In this document: positions 56,457 through 64,000 of the stretch, piece after piece
How the letters are laid out: the number at the start of each line of letters is the position of its first letter
How positions within the stretch are numbered: the stretch's first letter is position 1
DNA from: an uncultured Spirochaetia bacterium
Lineage (GTDB): Bacteria; Spirochaetota; UBA4802; UBA5368
DNA: 64,000 nucleotides
NCBI GenBank assembly: GCA_937877025.1
Contig: CALEGE010000009.1
Coordinates: 2,039 to 66,038, forward strand
Reading direction: 5' to 3'
Translations under genes and position numbers: made by a program
Notes under the pieces: generated by a model
Database searches by the model: none
The model's input: the letters and a program-made list of their open reading frames with translations, nothing else
What the model was told of the DNA's origin: nothing

Positions 56457-57041
56457 ATGCTGTTGAAGGGGTGCCTGCATACGCATACCACATGCTCTGA
56501 CGGCACAATGACGCCGCAACAGGTGGCCGACGCGTATCAGGCGAAGGGATACGATTTCATCGCGTTTACCGATCACGATTATCTCCTCAAATCTGACAGC
56601 ATTGAGCGTTACCGGAGCGTTAAATCGGATATTGTAATACTGACCGGAATTGAGCTCACGGTGTTTATCAAGGGATATGTCCATGTGAGCAGAATTTATG
56701 GAAATGAGGAGCAGTTGCACGTGTTGAATCACCTTGGGGAATACGATCTTGCGATGGAACAGGTGTTAGACAGGATAGCGTGCGCCGCGGCGATGTTTCC
56801 GCTCGACGCGGTGGAAATCACATCGAAGGGATTTCGCGACAGGCGGTATGAAATCCCCGAAATACGGTATCCGAAAATCGCGTCGGACGACTCGCACGCG
56901 TTGGTGGGCATAGGAAGGGCGTGGATTGAGCTTGATGCGCGGCGCGACAAAGACGCGATTCTCAGGGAAATCAAACGCGGGAATTTCTGGAACTGCTATC
57001 TCGGGCAACGTGAGATGACGGGGGGAATAAAACAAATCTGA
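56457..57041 (+). CDS. PHP-family metallohydrolase
   Basis: LHTHTTCSDG, FIAFTDHD, GIE, NH, SDDSH. Confidence 0.85.
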   Translation: MLLKGCLHTHTTCSDGTMTPQQVADAYQAKGYDFIAFTDHDYLLKSDSIERYRSVKSDIVILTGIELTVFIKGYVHVSRIYGNEEQLHVLNHLGEYDLAMEQVLDRIACAAAMFPLDAVEITSKGFRDRRYEIPEIRYPKIASDDSHALVGIGRAWIELDARRDKDAILREIKRGNFWNCYLGQREMTGGIKQI

Positions 57042-57113: not shown

Positions 57114-58259
57114 ATGGGTAAACGAGTCGCACTATGCGCTGTGGCGCAAATTAAAAACGAGGGCGACCTCTGGCATGCTCGTTTTCAAAACATGCTCGTC
57201 GGATGCTTTGAATCGATTGTGCAGCAGACCGGGATTACCTTCGACATGGATAACGGCATACGGAACATCATTACCTGTTCCGATGACGTGTTCGATGCGC
57301 GTACAATCTCCGACAACGGCGTGACAGATGTCGTGGGCGCGCAATTCAGGGGCGAGGAAAAAATGGCGCAGGAAAGCATCAACGGCCTCGGCTACGCGAT
57401 GGCATGTATTCTGTCTGGGCATGATGATGTTATTCTGTACATGGGCCATTGCAAGGAATCGCAGGGCGAGAGCCGCGGGATGATAACCAACCTCGCATTC
57501 GATCCGTTCTATTGCAGGCCGCTCGGCCTTGATTTTATGAACGTGAACGCGCTGCAGGCGAGGGAGTACATGCAAAAATCGGGCCTGACCGACGGACACC
57601 TCGCGAAGGTTGTTGTGCGCTCGCGAAAGAACGCCAGAAAAAACCCATTTGCCCGCGACACGAAGGACGTGAGCGAGAACGATGTGATGCAATCGCCGTT
57701 TCTGGCCGACCCGATACGCGAACTGCATTATTACCCCGTTACCGACTGGGCGTACGGCATGCTGCTGTGTTGCGAGGAGCGGGTAAAGGAATTTACCGAC
57801 AGACCGGTGTGGATTACCGGCTACGGTTCGTGCATGGATTCGTACTTCCCCGGCGACAGGGACCTTACATCGAATTTCTCTCTGAAAAACGCGACAGCGC
57901 GCGCCTGCGAAAAAGCTGGCATAAAAAATATCCGAAAAAATATCGGCCTTTTCGAGCTCTGCGATCACGCGGCATATCAGCTTCCCATGTGGGCCGAAGG
58001 CGTCGGTATTGCGGCCGAGGCGAAAGGCGGCGCATGGATCGACAGCGGCGGCATGGACGAGTTCAATGTGAACCTTTCGGGCGGGCAGTTGAACGGGAAT
58101 CCCCTGCTTCTCGGCGGCGCGGCGAGAGCTATCGATTGTTTTTATCAGCTCCGCGGCGAAGCGGGAGGCCGGCAGGTGAAAGGCGTACAGCGCGCCCTCG
58201 CGCACGGCACCTATGGTGCGGCCGGACAGCACCAGGGTGTTGTCATAATGGAAGTATAG
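57114..58259 (+). CDS. Thiolase-fold (SCP-x type) protein, Ltp4-like
   Basis: DPFYCRPL, ALQAR, PFLADPIR, NLSGGQLNGNP, ALAHGTYG. No thiolase Cys or GHP motif. Confidence 0.85.
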   Translation: MGKRVALCAVAQIKNEGDLWHARFQNMLVGCFESIVQQTGITFDMDNGIRNIITCSDDVFDARTISDNGVTDVVGAQFRGEEKMAQESINGLGYAMACILSGHDDVILYMGHCKESQGESRGMITNLAFDPFYCRPLGLDFMNVNALQAREYMQKSGLTDGHLAKVVVRSRKNARKNPFARDTKDVSENDVMQSPFLADPIRELHYYPVTDWAYGMLLCCEERVKEFTDRPVWITGYGSCMDSYFPGDRDLTSNFSLKNATARACEKAGIKNIRKNIGLFELCDHAAYQLPMWAEGVGIAAEAKGGAWIDSGGMDEFNVNLSGGQLNGNPLLLGGAARAIDCFYQLRGEAGGRQVKGVQRALAHGTYGAAGQHQGVVIMEV

Positions 58260-59483: not shown

Positions 59484-60671
59484 ATGAGTGAATATTGGGG
59501 TATAAAGGTAGAGGATATTTTCAACACCATGCCGGAACGATTCCGCCCCGAGGGCGCGAAGGGCGTCAATGCCTGTTTCGGCTATGACATCAAGGGCGAG
59601 GGGAAATGGAAACTGACTGTGGCGAATGAAACCCTGAAGGTTGAAAAAACCGGCGACCTCACCGGGTGCGTATCGGTAATGCTGGCCGATGGCGAGACGT
59701 TTGTGGGCGTGAACACCGGCAAGGTTGACGGCGTGAGCGCCTTTACCTCGGGCAGGGTCACGGTAGAGGGCGATTTCAGCGCCTTTGGAAAAACCGCGAA
59801 GATGTTCAAAAAGTATGTAAACGGCAAAAAAGAGATGAGCACGCGTGACTATATCCTCGACATGTTCGGGACGCTGGTAAGCCGTTTTCAGCCGAACGCG
59901 ATACCGGGGCTTGACGCGAAGGTGTGCTACGACATCGGCGGAAATGACGGCGGTGTGTGGACGGCTATCATTAAGGAAGGAAAATGCGAGCTGGTGGAAG
60001 GAAAGGCCGACAGGCCGACAACGATCCTGCATGTTAACGAAGCGAAGGACTGGGTTGACGTGATGCTTGGTAAATCGGACCCGTTTACGCTGCTTTCCGC
60101 GGGCAGGGCGTCGATCGAGGGCGAAACACAGATTGCCCTGAAGTTAGGGGAAATCTTCGCGAAGTACAAATCGCCCATCCCCGAAGGCGAGCCCGAGCAG
60201 GAGCTTATCGCCCTGAAAAAGGTTATATCGGTCAACCAGCGGTTTGCCACAGGGCCCGTTATGGGAAAATTTCTCAACGCGCTCAAGGAAAAGAAAATTT
60301 ATACAAACAAGTGCCCGAAGTGCGGACGCATTCATCTTCCCGCGCGGGAGGTGTGCGCCGAATGCCGTGTGCGCGCCGACGAATGGCTGGAGGTAGGCCC
60401 CAAAGGGCAGGTGCGTTACATGGAATACGTCTATTACTCGAGCCCCGACCCGCTTACCGGCGAGACGCGCGAAACGCCGTACGGGATGGTGAACATTTTG
60501 CTTGATGGCTGCAAAGGCAACGATACCTTCGCCCACCTCATCCGCCGCGACCAGATCGACAAAATCAAAGGCGGTAACAACGAAGTAGCGGGCACGCGGG
60601 TACGGCCTGTGTGGAACGAGCACCGTGTTGGCAGCATATTCGATATCAAGTATTTCGAAATCGATGAGTAG
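59484..60671 (+). CDS. SCP2-SCP2-DUF35 (Zn-ribbon/OB-fold) fusion protein
   Basis: Two SCP2-like repeats (FRPEGAKGVNACFGYDI; FQPNAIPGLDAKVCYDI), then CPKC...CAEC and the OB fold PYGMVNILLDG. Confidence 0.85.
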   Translation: MSEYWGIKVEDIFNTMPERFRPEGAKGVNACFGYDIKGEGKWKLTVANETLKVEKTGDLTGCVSVMLADGETFVGVNTGKVDGVSAFTSGRVTVEGDFSAFGKTAKMFKKYVNGKKEMSTRDYILDMFGTLVSRFQPNAIPGLDAKVCYDIGGNDGGVWTAIIKEGKCELVEGKADRPTTILHVNEAKDWVDVMLGKSDPFTLLSAGRASIEGETQIALKLGEIFAKYKSPIPEGEPEQELIALKKVISVNQRFATGPVMGKFLNALKEKKIYTNKCPKCGRIHLPAREVCAECRVRADEWLEVGPKGQVRYMEYVYYSSPDPLTGETRETPYGMVNILLDGCKGNDTFAHLIRRDQIDKIKGGNNEVAGTRVRPVWNEHRVGSIFDIKYFEIDE

Positions 60672-60682
60672 GGAGGGTGATG

Positions 60683-62107
60683 ATGAGTTTGAATTATGAA
60701 ACGAATGAATGTTTTACCGTGGAAGGGAAACTTGCGCTCCCCTACACATACTTCGCCGGAAAACTTGGCAGCAGGTTTATAACGACCATCCGCGACCAGA
60801 AAAAGATCATGGGCGTAAAGTGCCCGGCCTGCAACAGGGTGTACATCCCACCCCGCCAGACCTGCGAACGCGACATGACCGACCTTCGCGACGCATGGGT
60901 CGATCTGAAGAACACCGGGGAGGTCGTCAACTTCACGGTTGTCCGCTATAATGACAGGCACCTTCCGAGAAAAGCCCCGTTCGTGCTGGCAATGATAAAG
61001 CTCGATGGCGCCGATACGCCGTTTGCCCACATTCTCGAAGGGATCGAACCCGACAGCGTTAAAATCGGGATGAGGGTGGAAGCGGTATTTGCGAAACAGA
61101 CGACAAATACAATTCTCGACATCGATCATTTTCAGCCAATCAGGGATACAAAGGTATACGTTAAAGAAAGGGCCGGGGACGTTGCGAAACCGGAGGCTCC
61201 GGTAAAAACAAAAAACCAGATGGAAAAGGAGGAAAAAAGAAAAGCCATGTCAAGGAAGGTTATTATAACCGCGGCGCTGGCCGGCGCGGCGACAATGAAG
61301 AACCAGAATCCGGCGGTGCCGTATACGCCGAAAGAATTCGCCGAGGAAGCCGCGCGGTGCTACAAGGCGGGGGCGGCCATGGTGCACGTGCATTCGCGGG
61401 AAGAGAATGGCATGCCGACCCATGAGCATGCGCGCATCAAAGAAACGCACGACGCGATAAAAGACATGACCCCCGAGCTTATCGTCAACCTGAGTTCGGC
61501 GGTCGGCATGGGAAAAACTCCCGAGCAGCGGATCAGCCAGATTATTCACGTGAAGCCCGAAATGGCGTCGCTGAACACGAACACCATGAATTTCAGCATT
61601 GTCGACAGAAAGAGCGGCAAGATCTTCATCGATTTCGTATTCGAGAACACGTTTACGATGCTTCAGGATTTCGGCAAGGCGATGGAAGAAAACGGCGTGA
61701 AGCCCGAGATAGAAATCTATGACATGGGCGGACTCGATAACGTACTCATTATAATGAAGCAGGGCTTTTTCAGCGCGCCGATGAACTTCAACTTCGTATG
61801 GGGCGTGGCGGGCGGCCAGTCGTTCAGGCCTGAATCGTTTATTGCGCTTAAGAATGCGCTGCCCGCGGGCTCTAACTTTACCACCTGCGGCGTTGGTATA
61901 GAGCAGTTCCAGGCGATAACCATGTCGACACTGGTAGGCGGCCATATGCGTGTCGGCCTTGAGGATAACATCCGCATACCGAACGGCGAAATGGCGAAAG
62001 GCAGTTGGGAACAGGTCGAGTGGGCCGTAAGAATCGCGGAGGTGCTTGGCCGCGAGATTGCGACGCCCGACGAGGCTCGTGAAATTATGGGATTAAAGAA
62101 GCGATAG
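60683..62107 (+). CDS. DUF35 fused to a beta-keto acid cleavage enzyme (BKACE/Kce, DUF849)
   Basis: N-terminal CPAC...CERD and PFVLAMIKLDGAD. C-terminal KVIITAALAG, HVHSR, KPEMASLN, RVGLED. Confidence 0.88.
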   Translation: MSLNYETNECFTVEGKLALPYTYFAGKLGSRFITTIRDQKKIMGVKCPACNRVYIPPRQTCERDMTDLRDAWVDLKNTGEVVNFTVVRYNDRHLPRKAPFVLAMIKLDGADTPFAHILEGIEPDSVKIGMRVEAVFAKQTTNTILDIDHFQPIRDTKVYVKERAGDVAKPEAPVKTKNQMEKEEKRKAMSRKVIITAALAGAATMKNQNPAVPYTPKEFAEEAARCYKAGAAMVHVHSREENGMPTHEHARIKETHDAIKDMTPELIVNLSSAVGMGKTPEQRISQIIHVKPEMASLNTNTMNFSIVDRKSGKIFIDFVFENTFTMLQDFGKAMEENGVKPEIEIYDMGGLDNVLIIMKQGFFSAPMNFNFVWGVAGGQSFRPESFIALKNALPAGSNFTTCGVGIEQFQAITMSTLVGGHMRVGLEDNIRIPNGEMAKGSWEQVEWAVRIAEVLGREIATPDEAREIMGLKKR

Positions 62108-62183: not shown

Positions 62184-62217
62184 GCGATTGTTGAATTATC
62201 GAGGAAGAAGATCACTC

Positions 62218-62994
62218 ATGGATAAATGTGCATATGCGGTCGATGAGAAGGGGGTCGCGCTGCTTACGATAAGCAATCCTCCAATGAACGCGCTCGACGA
62301 GCAGACAATGAGGGAATTGGAGGCTTCGCTTATACGCATCGCGTCGGATGACAGTGTCAAGGTTGTGGTGGTGACAGGCGGCGGGCCGACGTTTGTCGTC
62401 GGGGCGGACGTGAACAAGGTGAGAGAAATAAATACCTGCGAGAGCGGGATTGCGACGACGTCCGAGGCGCAGGGGATTATCAACAGAATACAGGATTCGA
62501 GAAAACCGTTTATCGCCGCGATCAACGGATTGTGCCTTGGCGGAGGCACGGAGCTTGCGCTTGCGTGCCATATGCGGATAGCGGGCGATCAGGCGCAGAT
62601 GGGTTTGCCGGAGATATTGCTGGGGATAATGCCCGCGTTCGGCGGCACGCAGCGCGCGGCGCGGCTGCTTGGTCCGTCGCGGGCATTGGAGATTATGCTG
62701 ACGGGAAGGTTTGTCGATATGAGCGATGCCGACCGCATCGGGCTGGTTGACCGTGTGGTGCCGCACGCGGACGTTGTCGCAGAGGCGCAAAAACTTGCGC
62801 GGGGTATTGCGTCGAAAGGGCAGCTCGCGGTGCGGGCGATCGTGGAGGCGGTGATGGACGGCGTGAAGCTTCCCCTGGAGCAAGGGCTGCGGCTTGAGAG
62901 CGCGCTTTTTGGGCGGCTTGCCGCAAGCGAGGACAAGGAGGAGGGAATACGCGCGTTTTTGGAAAAACGCAGGGCAATATTCAAAGACAGATAA
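62218..62994 (+). CDS. Enoyl-CoA hydratase/isomerase (crotonase)
   Basis: PPMNAL, FVVGAD, AAINGLCLGGGTEL, GLPEILLGIMPAFGGTQR; both catalytic Glu present. Confidence 0.93.
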   Translation: MDKCAYAVDEKGVALLTISNPPMNALDEQTMRELEASLIRIASDDSVKVVVVTGGGPTFVVGADVNKVREINTCESGIATTSEAQGIINRIQDSRKPFIAAINGLCLGGGTELALACHMRIAGDQAQMGLPEILLGIMPAFGGTQRAARLLGPSRALEIMLTGRFVDMSDADRIGLVDRVVPHADVVAEAQKLARGIASKGQLAVRAIVEAVMDGVKLPLEQGLRLESALFGRLAASEDKEEGIRAFLEKRRAIFKDR

Positions 62995-63010: not shown

Positions 63011-64000
63011 ATGGAGAAAACAATAAATGATGTTTTCAGAAATCGCGTAAAAAAATACGGGGACAGGCTCGCCATCGAGAAGAAACGTAAGGGCGCATGG
63101 GAACAGGCGACATGGAATCAGTACTACGGACGGGCGCGGGCTGCCGGTCTGGGCATGATTGCGCTCGGCGTGAAAAAAGGGGACCGGATATCGCTGATGT
63201 CGGAAAACAGGCTTGAGTGGCTTTACACCGACATGGGCGCTCTTGGAATCGGGGCGTGTGTGGTGCCGATATATCCAACACTCATCGCGGAGGAAGTGGA
63301 ATATATCGTCTCTCATTCGGAATCGAAGCTGCTCATCGTCGAAAATAAAACGCAGTACGAAAAAGCCCTCGCTGCGCTGAAAAAATGCCCCAGACTTCAA
63401 ACGATAATCATCATCGATACGGAGGATATCTCACCGCTGCCGAAATTCGCGATGACATTCAACGACATGATGGAACTGGGAAAGGCGGCGTACAACGAAG
63501 ACGCCGGTCTTTTCGAACGGCTTTCAGACGATGTCGGGCTCGACGACCTCGCCACAATTGTGTACACATCCGGCACTACGGGTCCGCCCAAGGGGGCGAT
63601 GATCAGCCATAAAAACATCATGGCGCAGATGCTGGCGCTTTCGAAGGTTACTCCGCCGTACGCGTACGATACCGACAGCACGGTGCCCTTTCTGCCGCTC
63701 AGTCACGTGTTCGAGCGCATCGCCGGGCATTTCTTCGGCATGTATGTCGGGATTACGTCGTCGTACGCCGAGAGCATGGACACGATCGTGCAGGATATTC
63801 AGGAAAAGCGCCCGACGATGATTCTCGCAGTTCCGCGCGTGTGCGAAAAGGTGTTTCAGCGTATCACCATGCAGGTGAAAGAAGAGCCGTTATGGAAACA
63901 GAAGGTCTTTTTCTGGGGCCAGAAGGTGGGGGCCGGAATAAGCGAATACCGCGAGATGAAAAAGAAAATACCGCTGGGGTTGCGGCTGAAATACGCGATA
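63011..64000 (+). CDS. fadD: Long-chain acyl-CoA synthetase (FadD-like), 3' end outside the window
   Basis: Hand translation MEKTINDVFRNRVKKYG..., ENRLEW, IVYTSGTTGPPKGAMISH, LPLSHVFER, VPRVCEK. Confidence 0.93.
   Translation, partial: MEKTINDVFRNRVKKYGDRLAIEKKRKGAWEQATWNQYYGRARAAGLGMIALGVKKGDRISLMSENRLEWLYTDMGALGIGACVVPIYPTLIAEEVEYIVSHSESKLLIVENKTQYEKALAALKKCPRLQTIIIIDTEDISPLPKFAMTFNDMMELGKAAYNEDAGLFERLSDDVGLDDLATIVYTSGTTGPPKGAMISHKNIMAQMLALSKVTPPYAYDTDSTVPFLPLSHVFERIAGHFFGMYVGITSSYAESMDTIVQDIQEKRPTMILAVPRVCEKVFQRITMQVKEEPLWKQKVFFWGQKVGAGISEYREMKKKIPLGLRLKYAI

Follow-up and report, generated by a model that had tools for sequence, protein, structure and literature searches.

A DUF35-fused beta-keto acid cleavage enzyme encoded beside cysteine-less thiolase-fold proteins in uncultured anaerobes

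The closest described counterparts of the locus analyzed here are the hydratase-aldolase complexes of steroid and bile-acid side-chain degradation, ChsH2 (MaoC-DUF35) with Ltp2 and Shy (DUF35-MaoC) with Sal (PDB 6ok1; PMC12329534). Crystals of the lyases Ltp2 and Sal contain a dimer with a DUF35 domain of the preceding hydratase on either flank, and the tyrosine of their YDHF (Ltp2) or YDCY (Sal) motif is the catalytic base (PMC12329534). DUF35 proteins likewise staple thiolase-superfamily enzymes, uniting consecutive enzymes of C-C bond chemistry, in the archaeal acetoacetyl-CoA thiolase/HMG-CoA (3-hydroxy-3-methylglutaryl-CoA) synthase/DUF35 complex (6esq) and in the benzoylsuccinyl-CoA thiolase BbsAB (7pxp). 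Beta-keto acid cleavage enzymes (BKACEs) of solved structure are zinc-containing homotetramers with a glutamate base (PMC11961710). The stretch of DNA studied here, referred to as the window, comprises 64,000 nucleotides of contig CALEGE010000009.1 from an uncultured Spirochaetia bacterium (GCA_937877025.1) and contains one gene, DUF35b-BKACE, in which a DUF35 domain is joined to a complete BKACE. To our knowledge BKACEs have been known only as free enzymes, and DUF35 tethers only for the hydratases of aerobic steroid degraders. A full-text search for literature on BKACE/DUF849 joined with DUF35 found none, in agreement with the statement in a first-pass annotation of the window that no characterised fusion of this kind was known, and BKACE as a cargo of DUF35 is previously undescribed.

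Architecture of the fused gene

The single 474-residue DUF35-BKACE frame reported in the first-pass annotation was confirmed, as the plus strand is open without interruption from 60677/60683 through 62107 (474 codons) and the product matches both the Pfam profile OB_ChsH2_C and the full length of the BKACE profile. The start is the ATG at 60683, which follows a GGGAGGG Shine-Dalgarno sequence 5 nucleotides upstream, lies 11 nucleotides after the stop of the upstream gene and agrees with the N-termini of homologues in the alignment. A conserved N-terminal arm, a putative Cys3-Asp zinc ribbon, the OB fold of DUF35, a variable Lys/Glu-rich linker and a full BKACE TIM barrel follow each other in this order. 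In an AlphaFold2 model built with 55 homologues (mean predicted local distance difference test score, pLDDT, of 76), a folded DUF35 domain (residues 40-152) was connected to a folded TIM barrel (190-474) through residues 155-175, which were of low confidence, and a helix (177-189). Column conservation was equally high in residues 10-38 and in the BKACE domain (0.86 each), slightly lower in ribbon plus OB fold (0.83) and far lower in the linker (0.41).

Although the arm (residues 10-38) is as conserved as the catalytic domain, residues 1-38 remained below a pLDDT of 50 when the protein was modelled alone, and from this combination of conservation and lack of a fold we infer that the arm is a segment which folds on, or binds, a partner. 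By profile as well as by fold the domain that follows is DUF35. Residues 72-136 matched OB_ChsH2_C (PF01796) with an E-value of 8.5e-15 (54.9 bits versus a cut-off of 27.1), and the best Foldseek match of the small domain was 6ok1_D, the ChsH2(DUF35) chain of the Ltp2 aldolase complex (E 1.6e-7), which is thus its nearest structural relative. Further Foldseek matches to DUF35 were 7pxp (BbsA), 6esq (archaeal DUF35) and 3irb, the last of which was also matched by phmmer (3e-8). The fourth ligand position of the ribbon, annotated at first pass as aspartate, is D64 and was Asp in 49 of the 50 fused loci and Cys in 14 of the 22 split loci described below. Across relatives this position is occupied solely by Asp or Cys, with Cys also found in some fused ones, while the three cysteines are invariant; this is the pattern expected of a metal ligand, and D64 is part of a putative metal site. 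The fourth zinc ligand varies between systems, the ribbon being Cys3His in Shy (PMC12329534) and, as predicted, Cys3Asp here. The linker, correctly described at first pass as Lys/Glu-rich, comprises about 36-38 residues with 8 Lys and 5 Glu in residues 153-190, has a pLDDT below 50 and ranges from 32 to 43 residues in relatives.

The C-terminal domain has the profile, the fold and the residues of a BKACE and is predicted to be active as one. Pfam BKACE (PF05853) matched residues 192-471 over profile positions 1-274 of 274 (E 1.3e-93, 313.7 bits versus a cut-off of 24.8), and Foldseek aligned the modelled barrel with the Kce structures 2y7e/2y7f at a target-normalised TM-score (TMt) of 0.90-0.91 (E about 1e-26). 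Both motifs on which the first-pass annotation had based a complete BKACE, HxH (H235, H237) and RVGLED (423-428), were present and invariant in 55 homologues. Equally invariant in this set were all six residues that align with H46, H48, E230, E143, R226 and D231 of Kce (2y7d), namely H235, H237 and E427, the predicted zinc ligands, and E344, R423 and D428, the predicted catalytic residues. E344 in addition falls on the position of E171 in BKACE15, the enzyme in which the roles of this catalytic glutamate base and of R254 have been described (PMC11961710).

The possibility that the domain is Kce of lysine fermentation was considered and rejected. The two share the TIM barrel (TMt 0.9), the His-x-His and Glu zinc ligands, the Glu base and the Arg and Asp of RVGLED, but their identity is 33%, the loops are longer here, as in 3lot, the N-terminal DUF35 is confined to the group studied here, and Glu14 of Kce, which we take to be the amine binder, is replaced by Ala. 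The NCBIfam equivalog for Kce scored 281.5 bits, under its cut-off of 382, and the lysine-fermentation genes kamA, kamDE, kdd and kal were absent from the neighbourhood, which consists of thiolase-like, SCP2, crotonase, ligase and CoA-transferase genes. Two other named BKACE equivalogs also stayed under their cut-offs (201 versus 430 and 186 versus 350), so that no cut-off was reached among the NCBIfam equivalogs for Kce, the 3,5-dioxohexanoate enzyme and 3-oxoadipate:acetyl-CoA acetyltransferase.

Fused and split forms among relatives

Scanning a single genome for each species yielded 80 loci, and together with separately fetched ones 85 were annotated with the window's own proteins and classified. 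Fifty of these were fused, 22 carried adjacent separate genes for DUF35b and BKACE, and 13 had the BKACE alone. Fused loci were found in Spirochaetota and in Smithellaceae/Syntrophaceae. The separate genes (DUF35b of 154-182 and BKACE of 286-299 amino acids) occupy the same operon position as the fusion, as in loci L005 and L090, where a DUF35b gene for 154-181 amino acids lies immediately 5' of a BKACE gene for 288. Relatives with a stop between the domains, which the first-pass annotation would have counted against the fusion, thus do exist; they do not refute it, since the presence of fused and split forms in the same operon slot supports a functional link between DUF35b and BKACE. DUF35b was always accompanied by a thiolase-like pair in the loci examined.

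The domain-architecture search proposed at first pass recovered more than 80 clusters at 90% identity with the same DUF35-BKACE architecture (68-80% identity) from a collection of 5.8 billion proteins. Of 61 genomes belonging to the same order, 27 carried a full-length, stop-free fusion, and dozens of independent assemblies contained the same frame with a length of 473-476 amino acids, the same linker position and no stops. On the strength of this recurrence the possibility that assembly errors or a frameshift in this metagenome-assembled genome produced the fusion was rejected as practically negligible, and the fusion gene is real and conserved in uncultured anaerobes. A maximum-likelihood tree of BKACE domains placed 48 of the 50 fused genes in one clade with a support value (SH-like approximate likelihood ratio test, SH-aLRT) of 96 and left the other two unresolved at its base, a topology with which a single origin of the fusion is possible. 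The fused genes of Smithellaceae/Syntrophaceae were nested inside those of Spirochaetota, which indicates that the whole cluster moved between phyla, among organisms that share their types of anoxic habitat.

Residues 1-160 (DUF35b) were also searched against 1.84 billion representatives; the fused proteins are not listed in this search, probably since other representatives stand for their clusters, and it therefore gives no fusion count. The matches comprised stand-alone DUF35, tandem DUF35 and fusions to AMP-forming ligase, MaoC hydratase and thiolase-fold proteins. Locus L089 (L089:1-1399, GCA_020723325.1) adds a 1006-residue fusion of AMP-forming ligase, SCP2, SCP2 and DUF35a, which stands beside genes for the thiolase-fold proteins ThlB and ThlA and a PHP-domain protein. 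Judged by this variety of sequences, DUF35 is repeatedly a carrier of pathway enzymes. The BKACE of L089 is free and divergent, with CoA-transferase A/B, and the locus has no DUF35b. The earlier suggestion that DUF35 tethers the BKACE to its thiolase-fold neighbours draws support from the shared operon slot of fused and split forms and from the DUF35b fusions elsewhere.

Cysteine-less thiolase-fold partners and the surrounding cluster

The two thiolase-fold proteins encoded upstream of the fusion, ThlA and ThlB (Table 1), lack the nucleophilic cysteine of thiolases, as do the other two of the cluster (Thl2 and Thl3). In ThlA, CDHA replaces HDCF and GNP replaces GHP, while ThlB, which aligns end to end with SCP2-type thiolases, has Gly for the nucleophilic Cys, YDPA for HDCF and SNP for GHP. 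The aldolase-type motif tyrosine is present in ThlB (YDPA) but absent in ThlA (CDHA). The missing nucleophile in both proteins and the tyrosine in ThlB also favour a tether to these neighbours, the aldolase scaffold of the first-pass annotation, whose retro-aldolase activity is at best putative. Ltp3 and Ltp4, a heteromeric thiolase-like lipid-transfer pair of actinobacterial C24-branched sterol side-chain degradation, are thought to act as an aldol lyase. ThlA and ThlB resemble them as a heteromeric pair and show sub-threshold matches to the NCBIfam groups of Ltp3/Ltp4, PRK07937 and PRK08313, but are distant in sequence, and Ltp3/Ltp4 have no known BKACE partner.

With ChsH2-Ltp2 and Shy-Sal the locus shares a DUF35 domain covalently attached to a pathway enzyme and, encoded nearby, a pair of SCP2-thiolase-fold proteins without Cys, a putative lyase, of which ThlB retains the tyrosine of the YDxx motif. 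In contrast to these complexes, the cargo is a BKACE and not a hydratase and would act after the lyase or on the free acid rather than before the lyase, the core would be a ThlA/ThlB heteropair with two distinct DUF35 partners, and the hosts are strict anaerobes. By analogy the system may work like ChsH2-Ltp2 and Shy-Sal, yet it is no member of their group, as it has another cargo, a heteropair lyase and one defining catalytic residue missing. It differs from 6esq and 7pxp, whose DUF35 proteins are free-standing and whose partners retain the catalytic Cys. In gene content it resembles the igr operon of Mycobacterium tuberculosis (aldolytic cholesterol side-chain degradation), with an acyl-CoA dehydrogenase pair, a MaoC pair, a thiolase-like protein and DUF35.

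The operon runs in the order PHP, ThlA, ThlB, SCP2-SCP2-DUF35a, DUF35b-BKACE, crotonase and acyl-CoA ligase, with tight gaps of 11-12 nucleotides. The same order was present in about 70 species-representative genomes, all of them metagenome-assembled; genes for two acyl-CoA dehydrogenases and a split MaoC hydratase often come next. Neither a 3-hydroxyacyl-CoA dehydrogenase nor a Cys-bearing thiolase was present in any cluster examined.

Table 1. Coordinates of the fused gene, its parts and its neighbours in the window
Feature	Coordinates	Strand	Evidence
DUF35b-BKACE fusion gene, 474 aa	60683..62107	+	open reading frame, Pfam, alignment, AlphaFold2 model, Foldseek
N-terminal arm, residues 10-38	60710..60796	+	conservation 0.86, pLDDT <50
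Putative zinc ribbon C47-x2-C50...C61-x2-D64 (Cys3-Asp)	60821..60874	+	sequence, homologue alignment
DUF35 OB fold, residues 72-152	60896..61138	+	Pfam OB_ChsH2_C, Foldseek
Flexible Lys/Glu-rich linker, residues 153-188	61139..61246	+	conservation, pLDDT
AAGGAGG (61225-61231) and internal ATG of Met189 (61247-61249), 15 nt apart	61225..61249	+	junction comparison
BKACE TIM-barrel domain, residues 192-474	61256..62104	+	Pfam, Kce 2y7d alignment, Foldseek
PHP-domain protein, 194 aa, first gene of the operon	56457..57041	+	Pfam PHP and PHP_C
ThlA, thiolase-fold, 381 aa, no nucleophilic Cys	57114..58259	+	Pfam Thiolase_C_1, PDB matches, motif alignment
ThlB, thiolase-fold, 399 aa	58272..59471	+	alignments to 6hsj, 6esq and 7pxp, motif table
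SCP2-SCP2-DUF35a protein, 395 aa, four-Cys zinc ribbon	59484..60671	+	Pfam SCP2 (twice) and zf-ChsH2
Crotonase-family enoyl-CoA hydratase	62188..62994	+	Pfam ECH_1
Long-chain-type acyl-CoA ligase, truncated at the window end (the gene runs on to 64831 on the contig)	63011..64000	+	Pfam AMP-binding

The short PHP-domain phosphoesterase opens the operon in nearly all loci and has no evident part in acyl-CoA chemistry. The crotonase, whose true start probably lies near 62218, occurs in the Spirochaetota-type loci and is missing from many Smithella-type loci, and the ligase is FadD11-like by NCBIfam (390 bits). Past the window end, genes for a CoA-transferase-like A/B pair, DUF35c and a third thiolase-fold protein follow on the same contig, and the remainder of the cluster, consisting of the end of Thl2, Thl3, DUF35d, a SpoIIE-like protein and TetR, is found on contig C56, so that the cluster of this genome (G000) is divided between the end of contig C9 and C56:1-1926. 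In the second module, DUF35c-Thl2-Thl3-DUF35d (L001:15997-19286), both thiolase-fold proteins lack the nucleophile and carry YDAF and YQPY motifs. Promoter and terminator scans gave nothing above chance.

CoA-transferase A/B accompanies BKACE outside this cluster too, in close homologues located in unrelated clusters. One such BKACE in a metagenome-assembled genome of Desulfobacteraceae (L003/L075:4249-14574), 76-77% identical to the domain studied here, stands in a different pathway context, with a 1008-residue glycyl-radical enzyme and its activase, a short-chain dehydrogenase/reductase, CoA-transferase A/B and an acetyl-CoA hydrolase/transferase. The gene surroundings of the close stand-alone BKACEs of L088 and L091 gave no clue to the substrate. 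A GMC flavoprotein akin to cholesterol oxidase was observed upstream of PHP in five Smithella/Syntrophaceae loci (L036:4548-6149, L039:1332-3620, L043, L049 and L023), immediately preceding it in L036, L039 and L049; it reached 509 bits to NCBIfam ChoxAB, below cut-off, and the L039 version has 762 residues with a C-terminal extension of about 230. Since it is limited to five loci and its GMC part is absent from this genome, it was set aside as a substrate clue.

Proposed mechanism and alternatives

We consider it fairly probable that the locus encodes a BKACE docked through DUF35 on a lyase-like ThlA/ThlB core, where it would cleave a beta-keto acid with acetyl-CoA. DUF35b, with its arm, Cys3-Asp ribbon and OB fold, would dock the protein on the heteromeric cysteine-less core, DUF35a of the SCP2-SCP2 protein would occupy the other flank and bring in the SCP2 lipid carriers, and the flexible tether of about 36 residues would keep the C-terminal BKACE beside the core. 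ThlA/ThlB would most likely be a Tyr-dependent retro-aldol lyase acting on a hindered 3-hydroxyacyl-CoA, which the ligase, acyl-CoA dehydrogenases and hydratases of the cluster would make. The BKACE would transfer the acetyl moiety of acetyl-CoA to C-alpha of a free beta-keto acid and so form acetoacetate and an acyl-CoA shorter by two carbons, a step expected to keep the thioester and to cost no ATP, and the downstream CoA-transferase-like A/B pair would re-activate the acetoacetate. Tetramerisation of the BKACE might join up to four lyase units. The pathway is probably an uncharacterised lipid-type breakdown. The first-pass annotation had spoken of a CoA-sparing cleavage, of which the conservation of the thioester without ATP stands, while the term CoA-sparing is inexact.

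A number of observations speak against this account or parts of it. The zf-ChsH2 profile (PF12172) scored 18.7 bits at residues 38-62, under its cut-off of 23.2; the ribbon pattern is CxxC...CxxD, and the score is probably sub-threshold only owing to the putative Asp ligand. ThlB has Pro at the third motif position and lacks the other catalytic residue of these aldolases, which is His/Tyr in Ltp2 and Cys304 in Sal, and no equivalent of Ltp2 Tyr344 was identified; with the tyrosine kept and the second residue replaced, retro-aldol chemistry of ThlB is plausible, not assured. In the model the long flexible linker, a tether with no tunnel, argues for proximity over a sealed channel; the channelling between steps and the benefit to an energy-limited anaerobe, both proposed at first pass, are conjectural. 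BKACE homologues 74-77% identical to the domain occur without any DUF35 in other contexts (L003, L088, L089 and L091). The CoA-transferase-like B gene of this genome contains an in-frame TGA (L007:4415-4417, contig C9), 2415 bases past the window end (equivalent to 66415-66417), in place of the Gly codon of ITSPGY(L/I) in 29 homologues, and the frame stays open for 94 further codons; a nonsense mutation, an error of sequencing and read-through are all conceivable.

Sequences at the domain junction also suggest that free BKACE is made in most relatives. An exact GGAGG was found 6-10 nucleotides 5' of the conserved Met189 codon in 34 of 48 fused genes (loci L001-L078). It arises in two peptide contexts, AGG-AGG (Arg-Arg) and GGA-GGN (Gly-Gly), and the first Gly codon of the junction is always GGA or GGG and never GGC, which accounts for 44% of the Gly codons in these genes. 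The two contexts together with the restricted codons point to the nucleotide sequence itself being under selection as an internal ribosome-binding site. In the window the Arg-Arg codons are AAA-AGA and the sole strong site, AAGGAGG, has a spacing of 15 nucleotides, which makes internal initiation doubtful in this genome.

Among the alternatives, a variant in which ThlA/ThlB cut a lipophilic 3-hydroxy-3-alkylglutaryl-CoA in the manner of HMG-CoA lyase into a beta-keto acid and acetyl-CoA, both of them substrates of the tethered BKACE, is possible but on the whole unlikely. It covers the ligase, acyl-CoA dehydrogenase, crotonase/MaoC, lyase, BKACE and CoA transferase and needs neither a dehydrogenase nor a thiolase. 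It also explains the benefit of tethering, because beta-keto acids are labile and decarboxylate spontaneously. A precedent has been proposed in limonene degradation by a methanogenic enrichment, where cleavage of 3-hydroxy-3-isopropenylglutaryl-CoA is assigned to a thiolase-superfamily enzyme (PMC12583861). However, an enzyme to provide 3-alkylglutarates, by carboxylation or by ring opening, is missing from the cluster, and the second thiolase-like module and the PHP protein are left unexplained. A still less likely reading takes ThlA/ThlB as dead scaffolds or acyl-CoA binders and the BKACE as the sole C-C cleaving enzyme of the first module. The thiolase residues Cys, His and Cys are indeed missing from both proteins; of the catalytic pair of known aldolases ThlB retains a single member, and ThlA has none of the Tyr type. 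Against this, the two proteins are strongly conserved, with identities of 73-89% between fused loci and of 56-70% in split ones, and the gene content resembles that of the aldolytic igr operon.

DUF35 might instead serve the BKACE itself, in acyl-CoA binding or regulation and without docking on ThlA/ThlB, the neighbourhood then reflecting a shared pathway only. The original annotation of DUF35 as an acyl-CoA-associated domain would fit this, as would a Chloroflexota locus (L062) in which genes for DUF35 and BKACE are immediate neighbours but arranged differently. We nevertheless hold it to be quite improbable, given that DUF35 sits on a thiolase-fold enzyme in every solved complex (6ok1, 6esq, 7pxp and Sal-Shy), that DUF35b always comes with a thiolase-like pair here and that relatives of DUF35b are covalently fused to thiolase-fold proteins. 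Less expected still is operation in the synthetic direction, with the BKACE making a beta-keto acid from acyl-CoA and acetoacetate for condensation on the thiolase-like core; the Claisen-type acyl exchange of BKACEs is reversible in principle and SCP2 carriers could serve lipid synthesis as well, but TetR regulators, acyl-CoA ligase, acyl-CoA dehydrogenases and CoA-transferase-like genes are a typical catabolic set.

At its most far-reaching, and with low confidence on our part, the alkylglutaryl variant would describe a new type of C-C cleaving machine in anaerobes, in which a cysteine-less lyase cuts a hindered tertiary 3-hydroxy-3-alkylglutaryl-type CoA and passes both products to a DUF35-tethered BKACE. 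If true, acyl-CoA and acetoacetate would be formed without ATP, NAD or thiolase, DUF35 plugs would be a general means of mounting modules (ligase, hydratase, SCP2, BKACE) on cores of this kind, and the breakdown of beta-branched, alicyclic or sterol-like acids by syntrophs and spirochaetes could be explained. As for the docked BKACE that we favour, an expressible complex of four proteins would offer a concrete case of how DUF35 adaptors build metabolons, and could let pathway engineering turn free beta-keto acids into acyl-CoAs without ATP. The host groups are typical of methanogenic digesters, peat and hydrocarbon-affected sites. A conserved BKACE predicted to be anchored on a cysteine-less core points to an unrecognised variant of beta-oxidation in these organisms, one without dehydrogenase or thiolase, which would take substrates that block normal beta-oxidation.

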